A stretch of DNA of 64,000 bases from assembly GCA_012690745.1 (NCBI GenBank), contig GCA_012690745.1_4086.2. One strand, 5' to 3'. Every line of letters starts with the position of its first letter. Positions within the stretch are counted from its first letter, which is position 1. Under the pieces are notes generated by a model that was given only the letters and a program-made list of their open reading frames with translations, made no database searches and had not been told where the DNA came from. Positions 1-64,000 of the stretch are shown here, piece by piece. Source of the stretch: a phage. The translations under genes and the position numbers were made by a program.

Positions 1-330
1 AATCCATTAAAACAATATAATGTTTATGGTGATTCTATTATCAAATTAATCAAAAACAAAGATAGCTTTGATTTTGAAATAAATGTTTTAGATGATAATT
101 TTGACGAAGTACCAGTAAACCCTGAAATCTGTGATATTTTAAACAGTTTAAAAGGTAGTACCTACAATATATCATCTGATTTAATGTTTCAGTACTCATT
201 AATCCATAAAGATATTGAAAAGTATATTGAATGCTCCAAAATTTTGAATTATCTTTACGATGAATTTAAAAAGAGTTCTAAAATAACTGCATACACTTTG
301 TACAATATTCCTAAAATGGTGAATCTTTGA
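1..330 (+). CDS. hypothetical protein, 3' part (5' end outside window); EEYFQ-SLV-D family member
   Basis: frame 1 open from window edge to TGA 328-330; C-terminal LMFQYSLIHKD matches motif of the 46.8-63.9 kb array. Confidence 0.5.
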   Translation, partial: NPLKQYNVYGDSIIKLIKNKDSFDFEINVLDDNFDEVPVNPEICDILNSLKGSTYNISSDLMFQYSLIHKDIEKYIECSKILNYLYDEFKKSSKITAYTLYNIPKMVNL

Positions 331-1463
331 CAAATACAGTACTGGCAACTCCACCGTCTGTAATATATTGTCCAGTACTGTAAATTTGTATACCATCGGT
401 TAAGTAAGTTCTGTATAAAGTTGCTGTAACATATACGTTATTCATATTCATCTCTATTGGTAGTACACATTTGGTATAGGCCGACACATCTGTTTGTGTA
501 CCTATACCCAATTGACCTGCGTTATCGCCTGTGTTATAACCAGTTGCGTAAACACCTAATGAAGTTATAATATGATTAGAAAAATATGAATAACCCACAC
601 TGCTTCTTATTATATCACCTGGTGCTTGTGTTGTTTGTCTTAACGAAATATATGTTTGTGATGTAGAACCATTTGCTAACTGACCAAAGTATTGTCCACC
701 ACCATGATATGCAAATAATTTATTAGTACTATTATTACTTGCTATAGCAAAAGCGAAGTAACTTGAGTTTGTTGTATAATCTTTCACCGTATAGGTATTA
801 GTTATTTGAGAACATAACGTGTACTTTGAATATAACGTCATGTCGGTTGTACCTACGCCTGATATTGCACCAGTATAATACAATCTCCCATCGGTTCCAA
901 TAAATCCTTGCATAAGAAAATTTGCCAGTATTTTGGATGGTGTTACTCCAGTAGGTACTGTTCCTTGTACAAATGATGAAAGTGAATCGGTACTTCTACC
1001 ATTTCCCAGTTGTCCATAACTACCATAACCCGTATTCCATATCGTGTTGTCTGTACATAATACGCTTAATGCACCTGCACTAACTGCAATTTGTTTTATT
1101 GTTTTTCCAAGTGCTGTTATCCTATCAAACACTATCTTTGCAGAAGCCCACGTTGTTGACTTATCAGTTGATAAACCGAATGATGCACCATTTCCAGCAT
1201 ACCACATCGTATTATTTTTCTTTTTAATTAATGTTGACTCATACCCGAACCCATAGATCTTCTACGTTTGTATTGCACAAAATCCATTTCGTTTGTGTTA
1301 TAATATTACCTATACCCATTTGCCCAAACTCTTGAGAGCCTCTACTGTACAACGTACCATCTGACATAAGGGCAAAAACTGTTGTATCAGATGAAGCTAT
1401 TTTTGTAACAGAAGGTTGTATGTTCTTTTTTGATGATGTGATAATTCTTCCAAAGGGTAGCAT
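311..1463 (-). pseudogene. RCC1-like repeat protein paralogue, apparently frameshifted
   Basis: N-terminal ORF 1239..1475 (MLPFGRII from ATG 1463) and C-terminal ORF 311..1207 are in different frames; shift near 1240-1262. Confidence 0.5.
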
Positions 1464-1502
1464 TGTATCCTCCAAATGTAAATCGTTATTATATTTAGGA
1501 CA

Positions 1503-1530
1503 AAAAAATGCCAGTACAAGGCACTGGCAT
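1503..1530 (-). terminator. intrinsic terminator-like hairpin
   Basis: TGCCAGT-N7-ACTGGCA hairpin with A/T run. Confidence 0.45.
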
Positions 1531-1555
1531 AAAATCTAAGCAGAAGGCATATCCT

Positions 1556-1666
1556 TCATCTTAATAAATGAAAATTGTGTACCAGTATTTGTGGTTCCAA
1601 TTTCTTTATTTCAGGAAGAGTTGGTTTAATATTTCCGTACTTTAACATTCTTCCAAAAGGTAACAT
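1556..1666 (-). pseudogene. 36-codon N-terminal remnant of an RCC1-like paralogue
   Basis: MLPFGRMLKYGNIKP... then stop; ATG 1664-1666 directly after stop of upstream gene; no body. Confidence 0.4.
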
Positions 1667-1676
1667 ATTCCCTCCT

Positions 1677-2819
1677 TTATATTATATTTAATTTTTGATA
1701 TGTGGGATATATTTCTTGACTTGGTTTATCTAAAATATATTGTACGTTACCTGCACCATATAAACTACCATCAATAGTAGCTAATTTAACATTAGTATCA
1801 CCAGCCACCCACGATGTCATTTTTGATGCACCTGGAACTAAAGTTGTATTTTTTACGCTGGTGGAAACGGAATTTACCCCCAAACTACTACTTAAGTTAT
1901 ATCCACTACTATAAACTTCACCATTAATTCTAAATTTAACGTATACTGGTAAGTTAACAGCATTACCATAGTTGTAGTTTGTATGCTTTATAAAACGAAA
2001 CTCTGAACTTACATATGTTTCCGGTTGAGCTACACTGTATATATTGTATGACTGAAAGGAAGTACCAGCCGCAGAATTTAATAATCCAGTGTCCCCAGTA
2101 TAGCCACTAAAATAAACAGAAGTAGCATCACTCCACATAAAACAAGATGTTGCAGTTAAATAAAAATCAATCACATTTGACTTAACTACTCTTGGTGTCA
2201 GGTAACCAGTACCGCCCACAGTTGTGAAGCAGTTGAATCTGTTCTCACCCCACGCAACAACGTCGCCATTCGATCTTATTCCACATGCGTTCAGATGACC
2301 AAATTGCATTTTAGAAACACCAGTAAGGTTTGTATTTTGTGTCCATGTAGGGGCGTTTGTTGTAGTACTTGCTAACCCAATCATACTATATAAATTAGAA
2401 CCTAAAACCCAAACTGAACCATCTGCGTTTACAATAAGAGTTGCATGATCACGTGCAACATATATTTCGCTCGCATTGTCAAATTTGTCTTTGATTAAAC
2501 TATCAATGTTAATAAAAACATTACCACTATCTCCATAGGCATATGCTGCTCCACTAAACCAATATGAACTATCATTTTTTAAAATAGTTAATCCAGACTG
2601 ACTAAACCAAAAATTAACCACATTTTCGGCTATTAATGTACGTACTGTAAGTGTTGTTCTATTTCCTAATCCAAATTGACCTGCTGATTGAGTCCCACTT
2701 GCATATAATTTACCATCACTTGTAAGTATTATACAACCATTTATTGTTAAATCTACTTTTTTTATATCAAGTGGGATTATAATATTCCCGTATTGAATCA
2801 TTCTTACAAAAGGTAACAT
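1677..2819 (-). CDS. RCC1-like beta-propeller repeat protein (MLPF-tag family)
   Basis: ORF track; N-term MLPFVRMIQYGN; repeated G-x-N-x-x-GQLG-x-G type blade motifs; SD AAGGAGG. Confidence 0.7.
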   Translation of the reverse strand: MLPFVRMIQYGNIIIPLDIKKVDLTINGCIILTSDGKLYASGTQSAGQFGLGNRTTLTVRTLIAENVVNFWFSQSGLTILKNDSSYWFSGAAYAYGDSGNVFINIDSLIKDKFDNASEIYVARDHATLIVNADGSVWVLGSNLYSMIGLASTTTNAPTWTQNTNLTGVSKMQFGHLNACGIRSNGDVVAWGENRFNCFTTVGGTGYLTPRVVKSNVIDFYLTATSCFMWSDATSVYFSGYTGDTGLLNSAAGTSFQSYNIYSVAQPETYVSSEFRFIKHTNYNYGNAVNLPVYVKFRINGEVYSSGYNLSSSLGVNSVSTSVKNTTLVPGASKMTSWVAGDTNVKLATIDGSLYGAGNVQYILDKPSQEIYPTYQKLNII

Positions 2820-62681: not shown

Positions 62682-62686
62682 AACAA

Positions 62687-63049
62687 ATGAACACATTAAG
62701 TATTACATACTATACAACTAAAAAATTAGTTACTTGTTTAATATCATTGAAGACAAACCATGATGATATGTTTGATATGGCTGCATATGAATTAGAATTA
62801 TCAGAAGATGGCTTCAAGAGCTATGAAGTATATAGCTATGTTCGTGAAGATGTAATTGACACTACACTAATGCAAGAGGATGAGTTATTCCAAGAAAGTT
62901 TAGTATGGGATAATAAGTACGATTGTAACTTTGATTTCTTATGTTTAATCCAGAAAGAAATGAAAAGAATCTTTGATAATTATCCAGTGAAGAGATTGAG
63001 TACTGGACCGGAGCAGTACAGGAGAATTTTATTCCGTTATGAAGACTGA
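62687..63049 (+). CDS. array-4 family protein
   Basis: DELFQESLVWDN. Confidence 0.6.
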   Translation: MNTLSITYYTTKKLVTCLISLKTNHDDMFDMAAYELELSEDGFKSYEVYSYVREDVIDTTLMQEDELFQESLVWDNKYDCNFDFLCLIQKEMKRIFDNYPVKRLSTGPEQYRRILFRYED

Positions 63050-63374
63050 ATTAGTGAAAGTAATGTACGCTACTCATATTAAACTACTACTTGTGAAATT
63101 TGATTATAATAAAAAACATAATGATTTCTATACTTTAATTCGTGATGAAAATACATTCTCCTTGCGATGCAACAATATACCGTTGAAGATAAATGATTTT
63201 ACTTCACTTGACGAGGGTGAATTATTTCAAGAATCATTAGTTTTTAATAGTAATATAAAAATTGATATAGAAGTTATTAAAAAATACCAGATTTTATTGA
63301 ACAAAATTATGAATTGTTATCCATGTGAAATAGGAGGTCATATGCAGTTCAAATCAAAAATGTATGAATTATGA
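63039..63374 (+). CDS. array-4 family protein
   Basis: GELFQESLVFNSN. Confidence 0.6.
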   Translation: MKTELVKVMYATHIKLLLVKFDYNKKHNDFYTLIRDENTFSLRCNNIPLKINDFTSLDEGELFQESLVFNSNIKIDIEVIKKYQILLNKIMNCYPCEIGGHMQFKSKMYEL

Positions 63375-63918
63375 GGTTTATATGTTAGATGAAAAAATGA
63401 ACAATGGAACACAATATAATCATCTTAAGTTGGATACATTCGAATCAGCTATCAGTACTGCACAAGATATAATTGATATTATCAAGTTCATTAAAGAAAA
63501 TAAGTTCAAATGTTTGAAAATACTAAATCGTTCAATGTACCGTGATAAAAATATTCATGTATCAGTACGTAGACCGAAAGATCAAGAAAGTGGGAGAGAT
63601 TTCTATAACAACAGTGAGCAGTTCGAATGTGAATATGATCCAGAATTCAGAGGCGGTTTCATGTGTTACAGTATAAAGGATACCTCACACATTGAGATAC
63701 GTTCATCGAAAGGTGGCATACGTACATTAGAGTTCATTGATATAGTTTTAAATCAGGAATACTACTTTCAACTATCATTATTGTTTCCTGCATACGATTT
63801 AGGAGTTCTATTCATGTATAAGTACTTTCATGAGCACTGGAATGAAGACTTCTATCTGGACTTAGAAGATTACCAATTAGTTTGGAAAGAAATGGTAGAA
63901 CTTCGCAATCCCTCTTGA
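63364..63918 (+). CDS. array-4 family protein
   Basis: QEYYFQLSLLFPAYD. Confidence 0.6.
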   Translation: MNYEVYMLDEKMNNGTQYNHLKLDTFESAISTAQDIIDIIKFIKENKFKCLKILNRSMYRDKNIHVSVRRPKDQESGRDFYNNSEQFECEYDPEFRGGFMCYSIKDTSHIEIRSSKGGIRTLEFIDIVLNQEYYFQLSLLFPAYDLGVLFMYKYFHEHWNEDFYLDLEDYQLVWKEMVELRNPS

Positions 63919-63944
63919 CACCCACCGATTCTTTGTGATATAAT
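63915..63944 (+). promoter_or_regulatory. sigma70-type promoter
   Basis: TTGACA, 17-18 bp spacer, TATAAT; then CCCTTTA-N9-TAAAGGG hairpin. Confidence 0.5.
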
Positions 63945-63977
63945 CCCTTTATATTAATTGTAAAGGGTTATAACACA

Positions 63978-64000
63978 ATGTCCAACGAACTCACATTCAC
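63978..64000 (+). CDS. 5' end of a gene running off the window (MSNELTF...)
   Basis: ATG 63978 downstream of promoter; only 7 codons visible. Confidence 0.3.

Follow-up and report, generated by a model that had tools for sequence, protein, structure and literature searches.

We found that the 64,000-nt stretch of DNA analysed here (the window) carries four orphan families in tandem arrays, about 93 genes altogether (family A, 12-13; B, 20; C, 31; D, 30), and that these represent two different kinds of amplified gene set, family A on one side and families B, C and D on the other. Our favoured explanation, to which we give slightly less than an even chance, is that A supplies virion-delivered propeller effectors, and B, C and D repertoires of host-directed binders. 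In nucleotide sequence, the window shares 96-98% identity with G17, Sharanji, SHEFM2K, 121Q, PBECO4 and phAPEC6. Its source is an Asteriusvirus (121Q/PBECO4-like), an E. coli jumbo phage with a 350-kb genome, and the window belongs to the accessory part of that genome.

The four tandem paralogue arrays described in an initial annotation are present where it had placed them, far beyond chance, and the families are without assigned function. Its totals of about 105 genes and three quarters of the window were too high; the coding sequences of families A-D make up 60% of the window bases and the array spans 66%. It had also regarded the region as one island, which in fact joins a probably late virion-gene array (A) with a predicted early/middle block, and as an undescribed multigene system, which is overstated: the arrays are present in 37 deposited genomes and are mentioned, without analysis, in PMC5646251 and PMC7247149. 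We estimate that families A-D account for ~16% of the genes per genome. Iterated HMMs matched the families only on coding-strand ORFs, with 0 matches in other frames or on the other strand in the window and five related loci.

Family A occupies the left end of the window:
311-15044, minus strand: family A array, 12 cassettes encoding RCC1-like beta-propellers of ~370-400 aa that start with MLPFxRMxxYGN.
311-1207 plus 1239-1475, minus strand: split family A gene.
1556-1666, minus strand: 36-aa remnant of a 13th family A gene, tag only (MLPFGRMLKYGNIKP...).
4113-5292, minus strand: frameshifted family A gene.
13837-13907, minus strand: example of a cassette junction, with hairpin GCCAGTACnnnnGTACTGGC and T-run, box TATTAAATATAGTATAAT, RBS AAAGGAG and ATG TTA CCT TTT.

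The 13 RCC1-like MLPF-tag genes that had been placed at 0.3-15.0 kb correspond to 13 MLPF-type starts on the minus strand, but only 10 of the genes are intact, one being frameshifted, one split and one a remnant. Pfam RCC1_2 scored 27-38.5 bits on the family (cutoff 22), and the family profile matched UVR8 in the PDB at 1e-36 (the closest) and RCC1 at 6e-21. By these matches, family A members are true RCC1-like, seven-bladed propellers of the same repeat family as the RLD proteins RCC1, UVR8, HERC1/2 and RPGR, of which only the phage proteins carry the N-terminal tag and are associated with virions. In the alignment, tag positions M1, L2, P3, F4, R6, M7, Y10 and N12 are invariant, and outside the 12-residue tag the copies share just 22-24% identity. 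As the first 12 nt (ATG TTA CCT TTT) are identical across all intact copies and the first seven codons differ solely at codon 5, the conservation of the tag could partly reflect gene conversion or a translation-initiation constraint rather than a protein signal. A search for the MLPF tag on virion proteins other than the RCC1-like genes did not find it.

Every family A gene has its own intrinsic terminator and a -10-only promoter-like box, probably of the late type. Junctions like that at 13837-13907 are repeated ahead of 9-10 of the genes, and the motif AAATATAGTATAA occurs exactly nine times, always on the minus strand and directly upstream of A genes only. Mass spectrometry (MS) of purified phAPEC6 virions detects eight members (gp003, 005, 006, 007, 009, 010, 549 and 551) from the same array and with the same tag; peptide counts were low (1-5), and the data, obtained on purified virions, do not resolve head from tail for this family. 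Window genes 2890-4041, 6627-7775 and 7847-9016 are 96%, 92% and 82% identical to gp005, gp549 and gp003, respectively. The virion detection, together with a terminator and a -10-only box for each gene, indicates that family A is not an early or non-structural set. The array also differs in content between phages: 121Q has counterparts at ≥87% for just five of the 12 window cassettes, the cassette order is not the same among the window, 121Q and phAPEC6, and seven of the 12 copies have been replaced although the phages compared share ~96% identity in other regions.

The remaining families form promoter-poor, densely overlapping, rightward operons on either side of an early block that resembles the PeSL cassettes of T4-like phages:
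1-330, plus strand: 3′ end of an orthologue of 121Q gp233, the left-hand neighbour of array A.
15094-15122, plus strand: sigma70-like site before array B, TTGACA-17-TACTAT (10/12 match).
15148-19739, plus strand: family B array, 20 genes of 59-75 aa, defined by alignment and iterated HMM.
16964-17635, plus strand: unrelated 223-aa gene inside array B.
19740-21700, no strand: non-coding hub separating the left arrays from the early block.
20378-40565, plus strand: non-family early block, ~55 small ORFs.
31639-31896, plus strand: DksA/TraR zinc finger in the early block.
31960-32316, plus strand: GNAT in the early block.
40757-40784, plus strand: sigma70-like site before array C, TTGACT-16-TATTAT (10/12 match).
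40785-46793, plus strand: family C main array, 27 genes of ~63-104 aa with core LGT[ND]xQE, defined by alignment.
46783-63918, plus strand: family D array, 30 genes for acidic proteins (102-207 aa), defined by alignment and HMM.
48097-48548, plus strand: two dispersed family C genes within array D (starts 48097 and 48282).
51464-51530, plus strand: terminator-like hairpin and T-run (51464-51485), then TTGACA-17-TATCAT (51502-51530), inside array D.
56001-56614, plus strand: 85-nt direct repeat of 96% identity (56001-56085 and 56530-56614), flanking gene 56161-56532.
61148-61538, plus strand: two further dispersed family C genes within array D (starts 61148 and 61347).

For array B, the earlier count of 21 genes at 15.1-19.7 kb, 20 of them of one family, matched ours, the odd one being the 223-aa gene. 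Family B is phrog_11711 (function unknown) and has N-terminal xKEYY, central F-N-x-C-I and C-terminal Y..ILLLIYRY motifs. The 27 copies with an LGTNYQE core at 40.8-46.8 kb were likewise confirmed as family C, and the four dispersed copies bring its total in the window to 31; the first C gene has an RBS, AAGGGAG, and its true start is likely 40815. Family D has the core [ED]Ex[FY]FQxS[LT]Vx[DN], in which FQ is invariant; 27 members were recognised by strict HMM and three by motif plus iterated HMM, and ~13 ORFs within the array span do not belong to it. This array continues past the right end of the window, in 121Q for ~12 kb further with ~42 members, so that the ~40 EEYFQ proteins assigned to 46.8-63.9 kb exist genome-wide only and not in the window. 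The 85-nt repeat generates a truncated duplicate D ORF (56000-56164), which, with the family A fragments, bears out the pseudogenes and chimeras noted before. The gp233 orthologue carries a D-like motif, DLMFQYSLIHKD; the D HMM did not recognise it.

Conserved cores or termini with variable interiors, another feature of the initial annotation, were seen in the family alignments. B (~60 aa) is the smallest; C (~73 aa) is predicted to be a four-helix bundle (AlphaFold2, four helices, pLDDT 96), and D (100-200 aa, acidic) a beta-meander with helices (pLDDT 78). In C, the conserved columns are the hydrophobic core positions and LGT..QE, and the remaining columns have high entropy. Each of the three families keeps only its fold-defining core, that is, hydrophobic positions and a helix-capping motif, and the rest varies.

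The overlapping stop/start packing was found at 22 of 26 junctions in array C (11 of them ATGA) and 18 of 29 in array D, and B genes are mostly 1-10 nt apart. As for the sigma70 promoters proposed ahead of the small-protein arrays, one 10/12 site stands before each of B and C, but within the arrays promoter-like sites occur no more often than in shuffled sequence. Strict-consensus plus-strand promoters fall almost entirely (26 of 27) in the non-family stretch at 20.3-39.8 kb, and a consensus sigma70 promoter of its own precedes each of at least 26 ORFs of the early block, in many cases with a GGGG..CCCC (PeSL-like) hairpin after it. The hub contains 11 CAGTACTG palindromes and, at 20821-20959, 17 tandem copies of the 8-bp unit CTAGACGG, and the sign of the GC skew flips within it.

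We compared the arrays between phages. The copy-number variation between related phages that the initial annotation had proposed to look for was found (B, 20/16/16; C, 31/27/32/25/22). The arrays diverge much faster than the early genes next to them: with ph0011/A4/Turkey5, the C proteins share 80/66/37% and the D proteins 70/42/34% amino-acid identity, and the 55 adjacent early ORFs 94/90/94%. The B/C/D repertoire differs strongly between phages with nearly identical neighbouring genes. At 65% identity, five phages gave 63 orthogroups for C and 114 for D, against 22-39 copies per genome, the D count being an overestimate, as the loci do not span the same part of the array. Orthologue dN/dS was 0.28-0.42 versus 0.14-0.17 for neighbours (p from 4e-6 to 0.057 in six family-by-phage tests, five of them below 0.004) and never exceeded 1; the closest paralogue pairs had dN/dS of 0.2-0.6 and dS of at least 0.7, with a median identity of 25-28%. 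Gene-wide values that never exceed 1 for a family do not support the diversifying selection that had been claimed, nor does the lack of recent duplicates support rapid birth. By these ratios, each B/C/D copy is under purifying selection, and the arrays are old and mostly maintained rather than rapidly born; dN/dS below 1 everywhere and closest-paralogue dS of at least 0.7 show neither a direct arms-race signature nor a recent expansion.

No B/C/D protein is found in the phAPEC6 virion proteome (none between gp347 and gp549 by MS), and no transmembrane segments or signal-like hydrophobic stretches were found in them; these families are genus-restricted orphans, soluble and non-virion. No member matches any family in Pfam, NCBIfam, PADLOC or PDB, and fold searches gave generic matches only, so a host-directed function for B, C and D is purely our inference.

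Poxvirus ankyrin/host-range families and 'genomic accordions', and the ASFV families MGF110/360/505, are tandem paralogue arrays whose copy number varies between isolates and whose members have suspected or established roles in host range and immune evasion. The arrays here are likewise tandem paralogues of varying copy number, located in a variable region of a large viral genome, but the proteins are unrelated, the host is bacterial rather than eukaryotic, and a recent copy-number accordion is not seen at closest-pair dS of at least 0.7. Among jumbo phages, an array of >30 genes was noted for phage G and 121Q (PMC5646251), and a zinc-ribbon family of ~35 copies for phage G (PMC7824862); these lineage-specific tandem expansions are the same phenomenon, and for 121Q the same genes. 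Those reports give one sentence each; here there are four unrelated families, whose copies, at a median identity of 25-28%, are not 'very similar'.

The internal proteins (IPs) of T4 comprise >30 variants, are encapsidated and injected, and are shuffled via repeated regulatory elements (PMC2839356). Like the T-even IP loci, family A consists of tandem, highly polymorphic genes for virion-carried proteins that have just a short conserved N-terminal peptide in common, with repeated promoter/stem-loop elements between copies, thought to drive shuffling (PMC2839356). However, T-even IPs are small and basic and family A proteins are 380-aa RCC1-like propellers in 12-13 copies in a single array; the A tag is unrelated to the T-even capsid-targeting sequence (CTS) and, in the alignment, lacks the conserved Glu or L-x-E protease site of the T4 CTS; and T4 IPs are known to be injected, family A orthologues to be virion-associated. 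Like the PeSL cassettes of T4-like hyperplastic ORFan regions, the early block repeats, ahead of small orphan ORFs, a consensus sigma70 promoter that is AT-rich in its upstream part and has a GGGG..CCCC hairpin behind it. Here, unlike in those regions, it is the PeSL-like block (20-40 kb) that is conserved, with 48-53 of 55 ORFs common to relatives at a median identity of 90-97%; the variable arrays contain almost no PeSL-like cassettes, and array A uses its own terminator/-10-box cassette.

Two other roles for family A are each unlikely, though not negligibly so. GenBank names and Wagemans et al. point to DNA-condensing or inner-body proteins organising the packaged 350-kb genome, which accords with the virion association and with the inner body of phAPEC6 and 121Q (PMC7247149, PMC5646251). 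However, the 'chromosome/DNA condensation' annotation, and with it any Ran-GEF or chromatin function, is a name transfer from eukaryotic RCC1, and RLD propellers (the closest in the PDB being UVR8) are general interaction platforms; the median pI of 7.2 means that the proteins are not basic, MS peptide counts are low, and an architectural role does not predict the replacement of seven of 12 copies. External adsorption or host-range modules, such as tag-docked tips or decorations of the 'hairy' head and tail fibres, would suit the hypervariability and cassette exchange, typical of receptor-binding proteins, as well as the virion association and the unassigned hair-like fibres of these phages; PHROG RCC families also include far longer proteins, of 763-1734 profile positions, with the propeller as one of their domains. 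Yet known fibre anchor domains are much longer than the 12 residues of the tag, and by sequence family A is not linked to tail-fibre families. The capsid-attached fibres seem, from a figure legend, to be trimers, whereas RLD propellers are usually globular monomers.

An improbable reading of the arrays is genome filler, near-neutral tandem duplications that fill an enlarged capsid without individual adaptive roles, as in the ratchet model suggested by Hua et al. for the >30-gene array of 121Q (PMC5646251). Copy number varies freely across phages, fragments and pseudogenes are present, and dN/dS two to three times that of neighbours is compatible with relaxed constraint; but the paralogues are old (dS of at least 0.7, 25-28% identity), ~90 ORFs are nevertheless intact at dN/dS of 0.2-0.6 and the fold core is kept in every copy. 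Neutral copies of such age would have decayed. There is also a slim chance that B, C and D have the phage itself as their target, as transcription/replication regulators, DNA-binding proteins or assembly chaperones: roles in transcription/replication regulation, DNA binding or assembly were proposed for the ~35-copy zinc-ribbon expansion of phage G (PMC7824862), C is mildly basic (median pI 8.6), and the arrays sit between DksA-like early regulators and nucleotide-metabolism and replication genes. Against this, no DNA-binding motif or zinc ligands were found in B, C or D, D is strongly acidic (median charge -9), and conserved-machinery targets would not predict 34-37% identity versus 94% in neighbours. 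Classical exclusion proteins of the Imm/Sp type have a membrane segment or signal-like hydrophobic stretch, which B, C and D lack, and we consider superinfection exclusion or inter-phage competition very unlikely, although the location downstream of the early promoter block (timing inferred), the high turnover and the over-representation of Asteriusviruses among persistent infections of E. coli isolates (bioRxiv 10.1101/2024.12.31.630880) would fit.

If propeller effectors are indeed delivered by the virion, the family A tag would direct or dock them into the particle, like the capsid-targeting sequence of T4 internal proteins, and the variable propeller would be the part in contact with the host, whether it enters together with the DNA or is displayed by the particle. 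The near-identical junctions of ~100 bp may provide the recombination substrate for replacing and reordering cassettes. Asteriusviruses build no phage nucleus, so their DNA is exposed to host defences (PMC11895373). B, C and D may then be host-directed binders or inhibitors for host take-over or anti-defence, in which each paralogue would have its own target, and the hosts that a phage encounters would determine which copies it gains, loses or exchanges.

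By megablast, the window belongs to Asteriusvirus, a genus of 121Q/PBECO4/phAPEC6-like jumbo myoviruses that infect E. coli and Salmonella (genomes of ~350 kb). It matched 37 phage records, the best being G17, Sharanji, SHEFM2K and slurp01 at 96–98% identity, and the portion from 40 to 64 kb was fully covered by SHEFM2K. The G+C content of the window is 30–39%, and no tRNAs or Rfam families were found in it.

We called the gene families from six-frame ORFs by clustering followed by iterated HMMs for each family. The iterated HMMs were required, as plain blastp clustering fragmented the families (B into 11+4+2 and D into 11+6+2). 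Four arrays were recovered at the positions proposed in the initial annotation, and every HMM match, in the window as well as in five related loci, lay on the coding strand; therefore, the arrays are not a product of chance. Family A comprises predicted RCC1-like propellers starting with a common twelve-residue tag (MLPFxRMxxYGN), and families B, C and D are small proteins, C and D being recognized by LGTNYQE-type and EEYFQ-type cores, respectively. Their locations are as follows:

311–15044, minus strand: family A, 13 MLPF-type starts, 10 intact genes
4113–5292, minus strand: frameshifted A gene
311–1207 / 1239–1475, minus strand: split A gene
1556–1666, minus strand: A remnant of 36 aa
15148–19739, plus strand: family B, 20 members of 59–75 aa, aligning end to end
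40785–46793, plus strand: family C, 27 members, which with 4 more scattered within array D make 31
46783–63918, plus strand: family D, 30 members, the array extending past the window end

All 13 MLPF starts counted initially were thus found again, as the ten intact genes, the frameshifted gene, the split gene and the remnant. The families total ~93 genes, and their coding sequences make up 60% of the bases of the window. The earlier figure of ~105 genes, with ~40 in array D where HMM and motif matches give 30, was an over-count of a real observation. In 121Q, array D spans 160.8–189.2 kb and has ~42 members. The packing of the small-protein genes through overlapping stop and start codons was recovered at 22 of the 26 junctions in C (11 of them as ATGA) and at 18 of the 29 in D, and the B genes are mostly spaced by 1–10 nt.

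An orphan gene of 223 aa (phrog_29152; 16964–17635, plus strand), unrelated to B, sits in the middle of array B and has the same position within this array in 121Q, A4 and phAPEC6. At the left edge of the window, beyond the RCC1 array, the gene at 1–330 (plus strand), an orthologue of the 219-aa gp233 of 121Q, ends with DLMFQYSLIHKD, the core motif of D. The D HMM does not detect this gene despite the motif, and it is either a very remote D member or a coincidence. To the left of the window, the adjacent 121Q genes gp224 and gp225 (locus L002, 5624–6303) encode proteins of 112–113 aa that are 47% identical. They belong to a run of same-sized overlapping genes, gp224–232, possibly another small set of paralogues beyond the window.

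We compared the syntenic regions of 121Q, ph0011, A4, Turkey5 and phAPEC6. There are 20 copies of B in the window and 16 each in 121Q and A4; for C the numbers are 31 in the window, 27 in 121Q, 32 in ph0011, 25 in A4 and 22 in Turkey5. The most striking result is the contrast in amino acid identity between the families and their neighbours, which are the 55 non-family ORFs (early block) lying between arrays B and C.

Table. Median amino acid identity of best matches to ph0011, A4 and Turkey5
55 non-family ORFs, 21.7–40.6 kb: 94% (ph0011), 90% (A4), 94% (Turkey5)
Family C: 80% (ph0011), 66% (A4), 37% (Turkey5)
Family D: 70% (ph0011), 42% (A4), 34% (Turkey5)

When proteins of five phages were grouped at 65% identity, we obtained 63 orthogroups for C and 114 for D, the latter figure being inflated by the unequal coverage of the array among the phages, compared with 22–39 copies per genome. 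Gene-wide dN/dS values (Nei–Gojobori) of the B, C and D orthologues have medians of 0.28–0.42, whereas those of the neighbours are 0.14–0.17 (Mann–Whitney p from 4e-6 to 0.057; five of the six family-by-phage tests gave p below 0.004). No family exceeded a gene-wide value of 1, which was passed by at most one gene per comparison. Among the paralogues of the window, the median identity is 25–28% and the maximum is 39% for A, 62% for B, 54% for C and 58% for D; the closest pairs of B, C and D have dS ≥0.7 and dN/dS between 0.2 and 0.6. There are therefore no recent duplicates among them, and a 'rapid amplification' is not supported. The only sign of recent rearrangement in these arrays, otherwise saturated at synonymous sites, is an 85-nt direct repeat (96%; 56001–56085 and 56530–56614), which flanks the gene at 56161–56532 and yields a truncated duplicate ORF (56000–56164).

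Taken together, these data indicate that the families are ancient and individually maintained, with turnover and exchange of members, and that their proteins change at a raised but sub-neutral rate. The birth-and-death evolution proposed in the initial annotation is supported by the copy-number variation among related phages, the turnover of orthogroups and the gene fragments. The diversifying selection invoked along with it is not demonstrated by the gene-wide medians, which never rise above 1 for either orthologues or closest paralogues.

Sigma70-type promoters had also been proposed for the small-protein arrays. Using a strict consensus (TTGACA or TTGCAA, N16–18, TATAAT), we found 27 plus-strand promoters in the window, of which 26 lie at 20.3–39.8 kb, outside any family. 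Promoter-like sites within arrays B, C and D were no commoner than in shuffled sequence, and what stands of the proposal are the sites before B and C and within D:

15094–15122, plus strand: site in front of array B, 10/12 consensus match
40757–40784: site in front of array C, with an RBS downstream and the first C gene probably starting at 40815
51464–51530, plus strand: terminator and promoter pair in array D

Long operons behind sigma70-type promoters would therefore be plausible for B, C and D.

The early block has a distinct organization. At 20378–39830 (plus strand) there are at least 26 near-consensus sigma70 promoters having AGTACT immediately 5′ of both hexamers. They fall in families of 50–100-nt repeats, in which an AT-rich part is followed by AGTACT-TTGCAA, AGTACTG-TATAAT, a GGGG..CCCC hairpin, an RBS and a small ORF; in a 13-copy (99 nt) and a 12-copy (82 nt) family the promoter precedes the hairpin, e.g. 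GGGGAGAAATGGTTCTCCC. This build is like that of the PeSL cassettes of T4-like phages, where a sigma70 promoter and a GGGG..CCCC stem-loop lie beside small ORFans (defined in PMC2839356; architecture also in PMC4122927). However, unlike PeSLs in the T4-like phages, the early block is the conserved part of its region (90–94% amino acid identity to relatives), and this PeSL-like block is the best-conserved part of the window. We know of no earlier report of PeSL-like cassettes in Asteriusvirus.

In the 2-kb non-coding stretch at 19740–21700 the palindrome CAGTACTG is present 11 times; over the window as a whole we counted 52 occurrences, where 0.94 would be expected. An 8-bp tandem array of CTAGACGG/CTAAACGG (17 copies) is present at 20821–20959, and the GC skew changes sign within the stretch, a candidate replication origin or regulatory hub. 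In array B (plus strand) both skews run contrary to those of the other plus-strand genes, with −0.16 for GC and +0.15 to +0.23 for AT; the probable cause is its composition (10.7% Tyr and few Gly/Ala/Val/Asp/Glu codons), not the direction of replication. In the early block, a DksA/TraR-type zinc-finger protein adjoins a GNAT acetyltransferase (31639–32316, plus strand), and the two are plausible modifiers of host RNA polymerase or host proteins.

Three members of family A matched Pfam RCC1_2 at 27.0, 29.6 and 38.5 bits (cutoff 22), and two of these also matched Pfam RCC1 at 22.5 and 24.8 bits (cutoff 21.7). The best PHROG of the family is 'regulator of chromosome condensation'. The A profile matched the solved seven-bladed RCC1-like domains (RLDs) of UVR8 (9.7e-37), HERC1 (1e-34), RPGR (5e-33) and RCC1 (6e-21), and also HERC2, the matches covering up to three stretches per chain. 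Judged from these profile matches, the family A proteins are genuine RCC1-like propellers. Identity among the ten intact copies is only 22–24%. Apart from a single Gly per repeat, invariant in six consecutive repeats, their conservation is confined to the twelve N-terminal residues, of which M1, L2, P3, F4, R6, M7, Y10 and N12 are invariant. The A genes of phAPEC6 and 121Q show the same tag pattern on divergent proteins, and when sought on other genes (~380 kb of related DNA and IMG/VR) the tag was confined to RCC1-like genes.

Nine to ten A genes are preceded by GCCAGTACnnnnGTACTGGC with a T-run, then TATTAAATATAGTATAAT and then AAAGGAGG, after which the gene begins with ATG TTA CCT TTT. The sequence AAATATAGTATAA has nine exact copies in the window, all in this position before an A gene. 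The first element is a predicted intrinsic terminator of the upstream gene, and the TATTAAATATAGTATAAT box, which is without a −35 element, would be a late-type promoter; Asteriusvirus-type phages encode their own sigma factor (PMC7247149). Both disrupted A genes (4113–5292 and 311–1475, minus strand) are broken alike in 121Q (gp239/240 and gp234/235, respectively), and therefore the breaks appear to be common to the two phages and not artefacts of the window sequence. They may be inherited pseudogenes or cases of programmed frameshifting.

Mass spectrometry of phAPEC6 virions detected gp003, 005, 006, 007, 009, 010, 549 and 551, all of them ~40-kDa 'DNA condensation' proteins (PMC7247149 Table 1). 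We observed that these eight genes all bear the A tag and make up the same array, next to array B. Three genes of the window correspond to them closely:

2890–4041: 96% to phAPEC6 gp005
6627–7775: 92% to phAPEC6 gp549
7847–9016: 82% to phAPEC6 gp003

Only 5 of 12 A genes in the window have a counterpart of at least 87% in 121Q, and the order of the shared cassettes differs among the window, 121Q and phAPEC6, the cassettes having been replaced and reordered. Two 'chromosome condensation regulators' were among the most divergent proteins in a 2026 comparison of fEgEco12 with Ecwhy_1 (PMC13070987). Wagemans et al. suggested a DNA-ordering role for these proteins (PMC7247149). The chromatin/Ran-GEF ('chromosome condensation') activity is an annotation only, and their paper cites no evidence for it from prokaryotes or phages. 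The view that none of the four families resembles a nameable structural protein misjudged family A, which comprises RCC1-like proteins encoded in per-gene cassettes, eight of them virion-detected in phAPEC6.

We propose that the A proteins may be interchangeable virion-carried proteins, with the common N-terminal peptide acting as a loading or docking signal. The short invariant peptide on otherwise divergent proteins, the virion association, the terminator/promoter cassette of each gene and the replacement of cassettes between near-identical phages all point in this direction. An inner-body scaffold and an external adsorption module are both live alternatives. The A orthologues were detected in whole virions, where head and tail are not distinguished, whereas the internal proteins (IPs) of T4 sit inside the head. 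For the loading-signal proposal, the closest precedent would be the IP loci of T-even phages, whose >30 variants are encapsidated, injected and shuffled via repeated regulatory elements (PMC2839356). The T4 IPs and family A are alike in having a short conserved N-terminal peptide on otherwise divergent proteins, and in being encoded at polymorphic tandem loci that have repeated regulatory elements at their boundaries. The T4 targeting peptide ends in the prohead-protease site L/I-x-E. Unlike it, the A tag has no conserved protease site, and we found no conserved Glu or L-x-E within the first ~20 residues of the A proteins. The PHROG and Pfam matches of family A are also solely of the RCC1 type, with no IP homology. 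The missing protease site and the lack of IP homology both count against placing family A among the T-even IPs.

Families B, C and D had no significant match in NCBIfam or among PDB sequences. The matches obtained were at chance level: PDC-S19 in PADLOC (E 0.012, 12.9 bits), two DUFs in Pfam (E ~0.05) and, for the C profile against PDB sequences, a prefoldin (E 7). In PHROGs they matched 'unknown function' entries only, with D spread over at least 20 phrogs, and the three families are mutually unrelated in profile–profile comparisons (hhalign). No membrane-like segment was found in their proteins, and the virion mass spectrometry of phAPEC6 detected nothing between gp347 and gp549, the range holding B, C and D (PMC7247149 Table 1). 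The D proteins are acidic (median pI 4.8, charge −9) and the C proteins mildly basic (pI 8.6).

AlphaFold2 with the paralogue alignment predicted four helices for C (pLDDT 96), and its model of D (pLDDT 78) has a beta-meander of four strands and, after it, three helices, the best-predicted of which contains the FQ motif. Foldseek searches against the viral models of BFVD returned the family itself and two weakly matching proteins of Klebsiella phage RaK2, and gave no functional lead. The latter, H6X4J2 and H6X3N1, are both uncharacterised and resembled the D model of 56161–56532 with E-values of 6e-3 and 2e-2, respectively (TM ~0.5), and sequence searches with D stay within the genus. From these weak structural matches, the D scaffold may be older than the genus. 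Conservation in C is limited to a hydrophobic core at helical spacing and to LGT..QE, which looks like a helix-capping motif, and all other columns have high entropy; D shows the same pattern with SxEE..FQ.S. The fold is thus kept and the surface is free to vary. We also considered EExYFQ/S in D as a TEV/3C-like cleavage site and rejected it as unsupported, since Q is followed by variable residues and the helix that contains the motif is predicted with confidence.

With C and D, tblastn found only 36 Asteriusvirus-type records. The C profile gave 186 clusters, all the named ones being from Asteriusvirus-type phages or E. coli assemblies (~350-kb contigs), and an exhaustive HMMER search with the D profile over 1.84 billion representatives gave 121 clusters only. 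In a word-indexed search the D profile had reached no more than 22 close relatives, and the exhaustive search was needed to show that the family is small. The profile and structure searches assigned no known function to B, C or D, families that the initial annotation had been unable to name.

For B, C and D, we infer a role as repertoires of binders that would be directed at the host and serve take-over or anti-defence. The circumstantial evidence for this reading comprises soluble non-virion proteins encoded on the early/middle strand, conserved scaffolds with free surfaces, purifying selection on each copy, a repertoire that is strongly strain-dependent and a genus without a nucleus shielding its DNA. 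If the small proteins regulated the phage's own machinery instead, such divergence would not be predicted. That the arrays are neutral filler is unlikely, since ~90 old ORFs are still intact. A host-directed role of B–D could be combined with the loading of A into one two-part repertoire, a speculative and rather improbable reading as a whole. MLPFxRMxxYGN would then be a portable signal by which interchangeable propeller effectors are loaded into the virion and so delivered to the cell, and the diversified mini-scaffolds of B, C and D would make up three germline libraries. In these libraries, every B–D paralogue would have its own host defence or host factor to neutralise, and the set carried by a phage would define the E. 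coli strains that it can exploit or that are open to persistence.

Arrays of this kind had been noted earlier in these very phages, and their novelty had been overstated. A passage of Hua et al. on a gene array of 121Q probably refers, by copy number, to array C, but in contrast to that passage the members of array C are only ~28% identical. Iyer et al. 2021 described a ~35-copy zinc-ribbon expansion in phage G and did not treat families A–D (PMC7824862); the Sharanji and UE-S1 papers do not discuss these families, and no functional study of the arrays was found in the literature searched. With family A misjudged and both selection and novelty overstated, the initial interpretation was half right. 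The arrays belong to a known kind, the lineage-specific multigene families in plastic regions of large viral genomes; within it, those of the Asteriusvirus-type phages are unusually large, unstudied and experimentally accessible.

These four orphan families account for about one-sixth of the genes of these 350-kb coliphages and, in genomes that are otherwise very conserved, change faster than any other part. As several members of the group (Sharanji, slurp01) are hosted by E. coli K-12, the role of jumbo-phage ORFans is directly testable. If the A tag is a virion-loading signal, it would provide a simple handle for packaging foreign cargo, and if the small families are binders, new inhibitors of bacterial proteins could be drawn from them directly. 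If, on the other hand, deletion of the arrays has no effect, this would greatly strengthen the argument that jumbo phages carry neutral 'capsid-filling' DNA.
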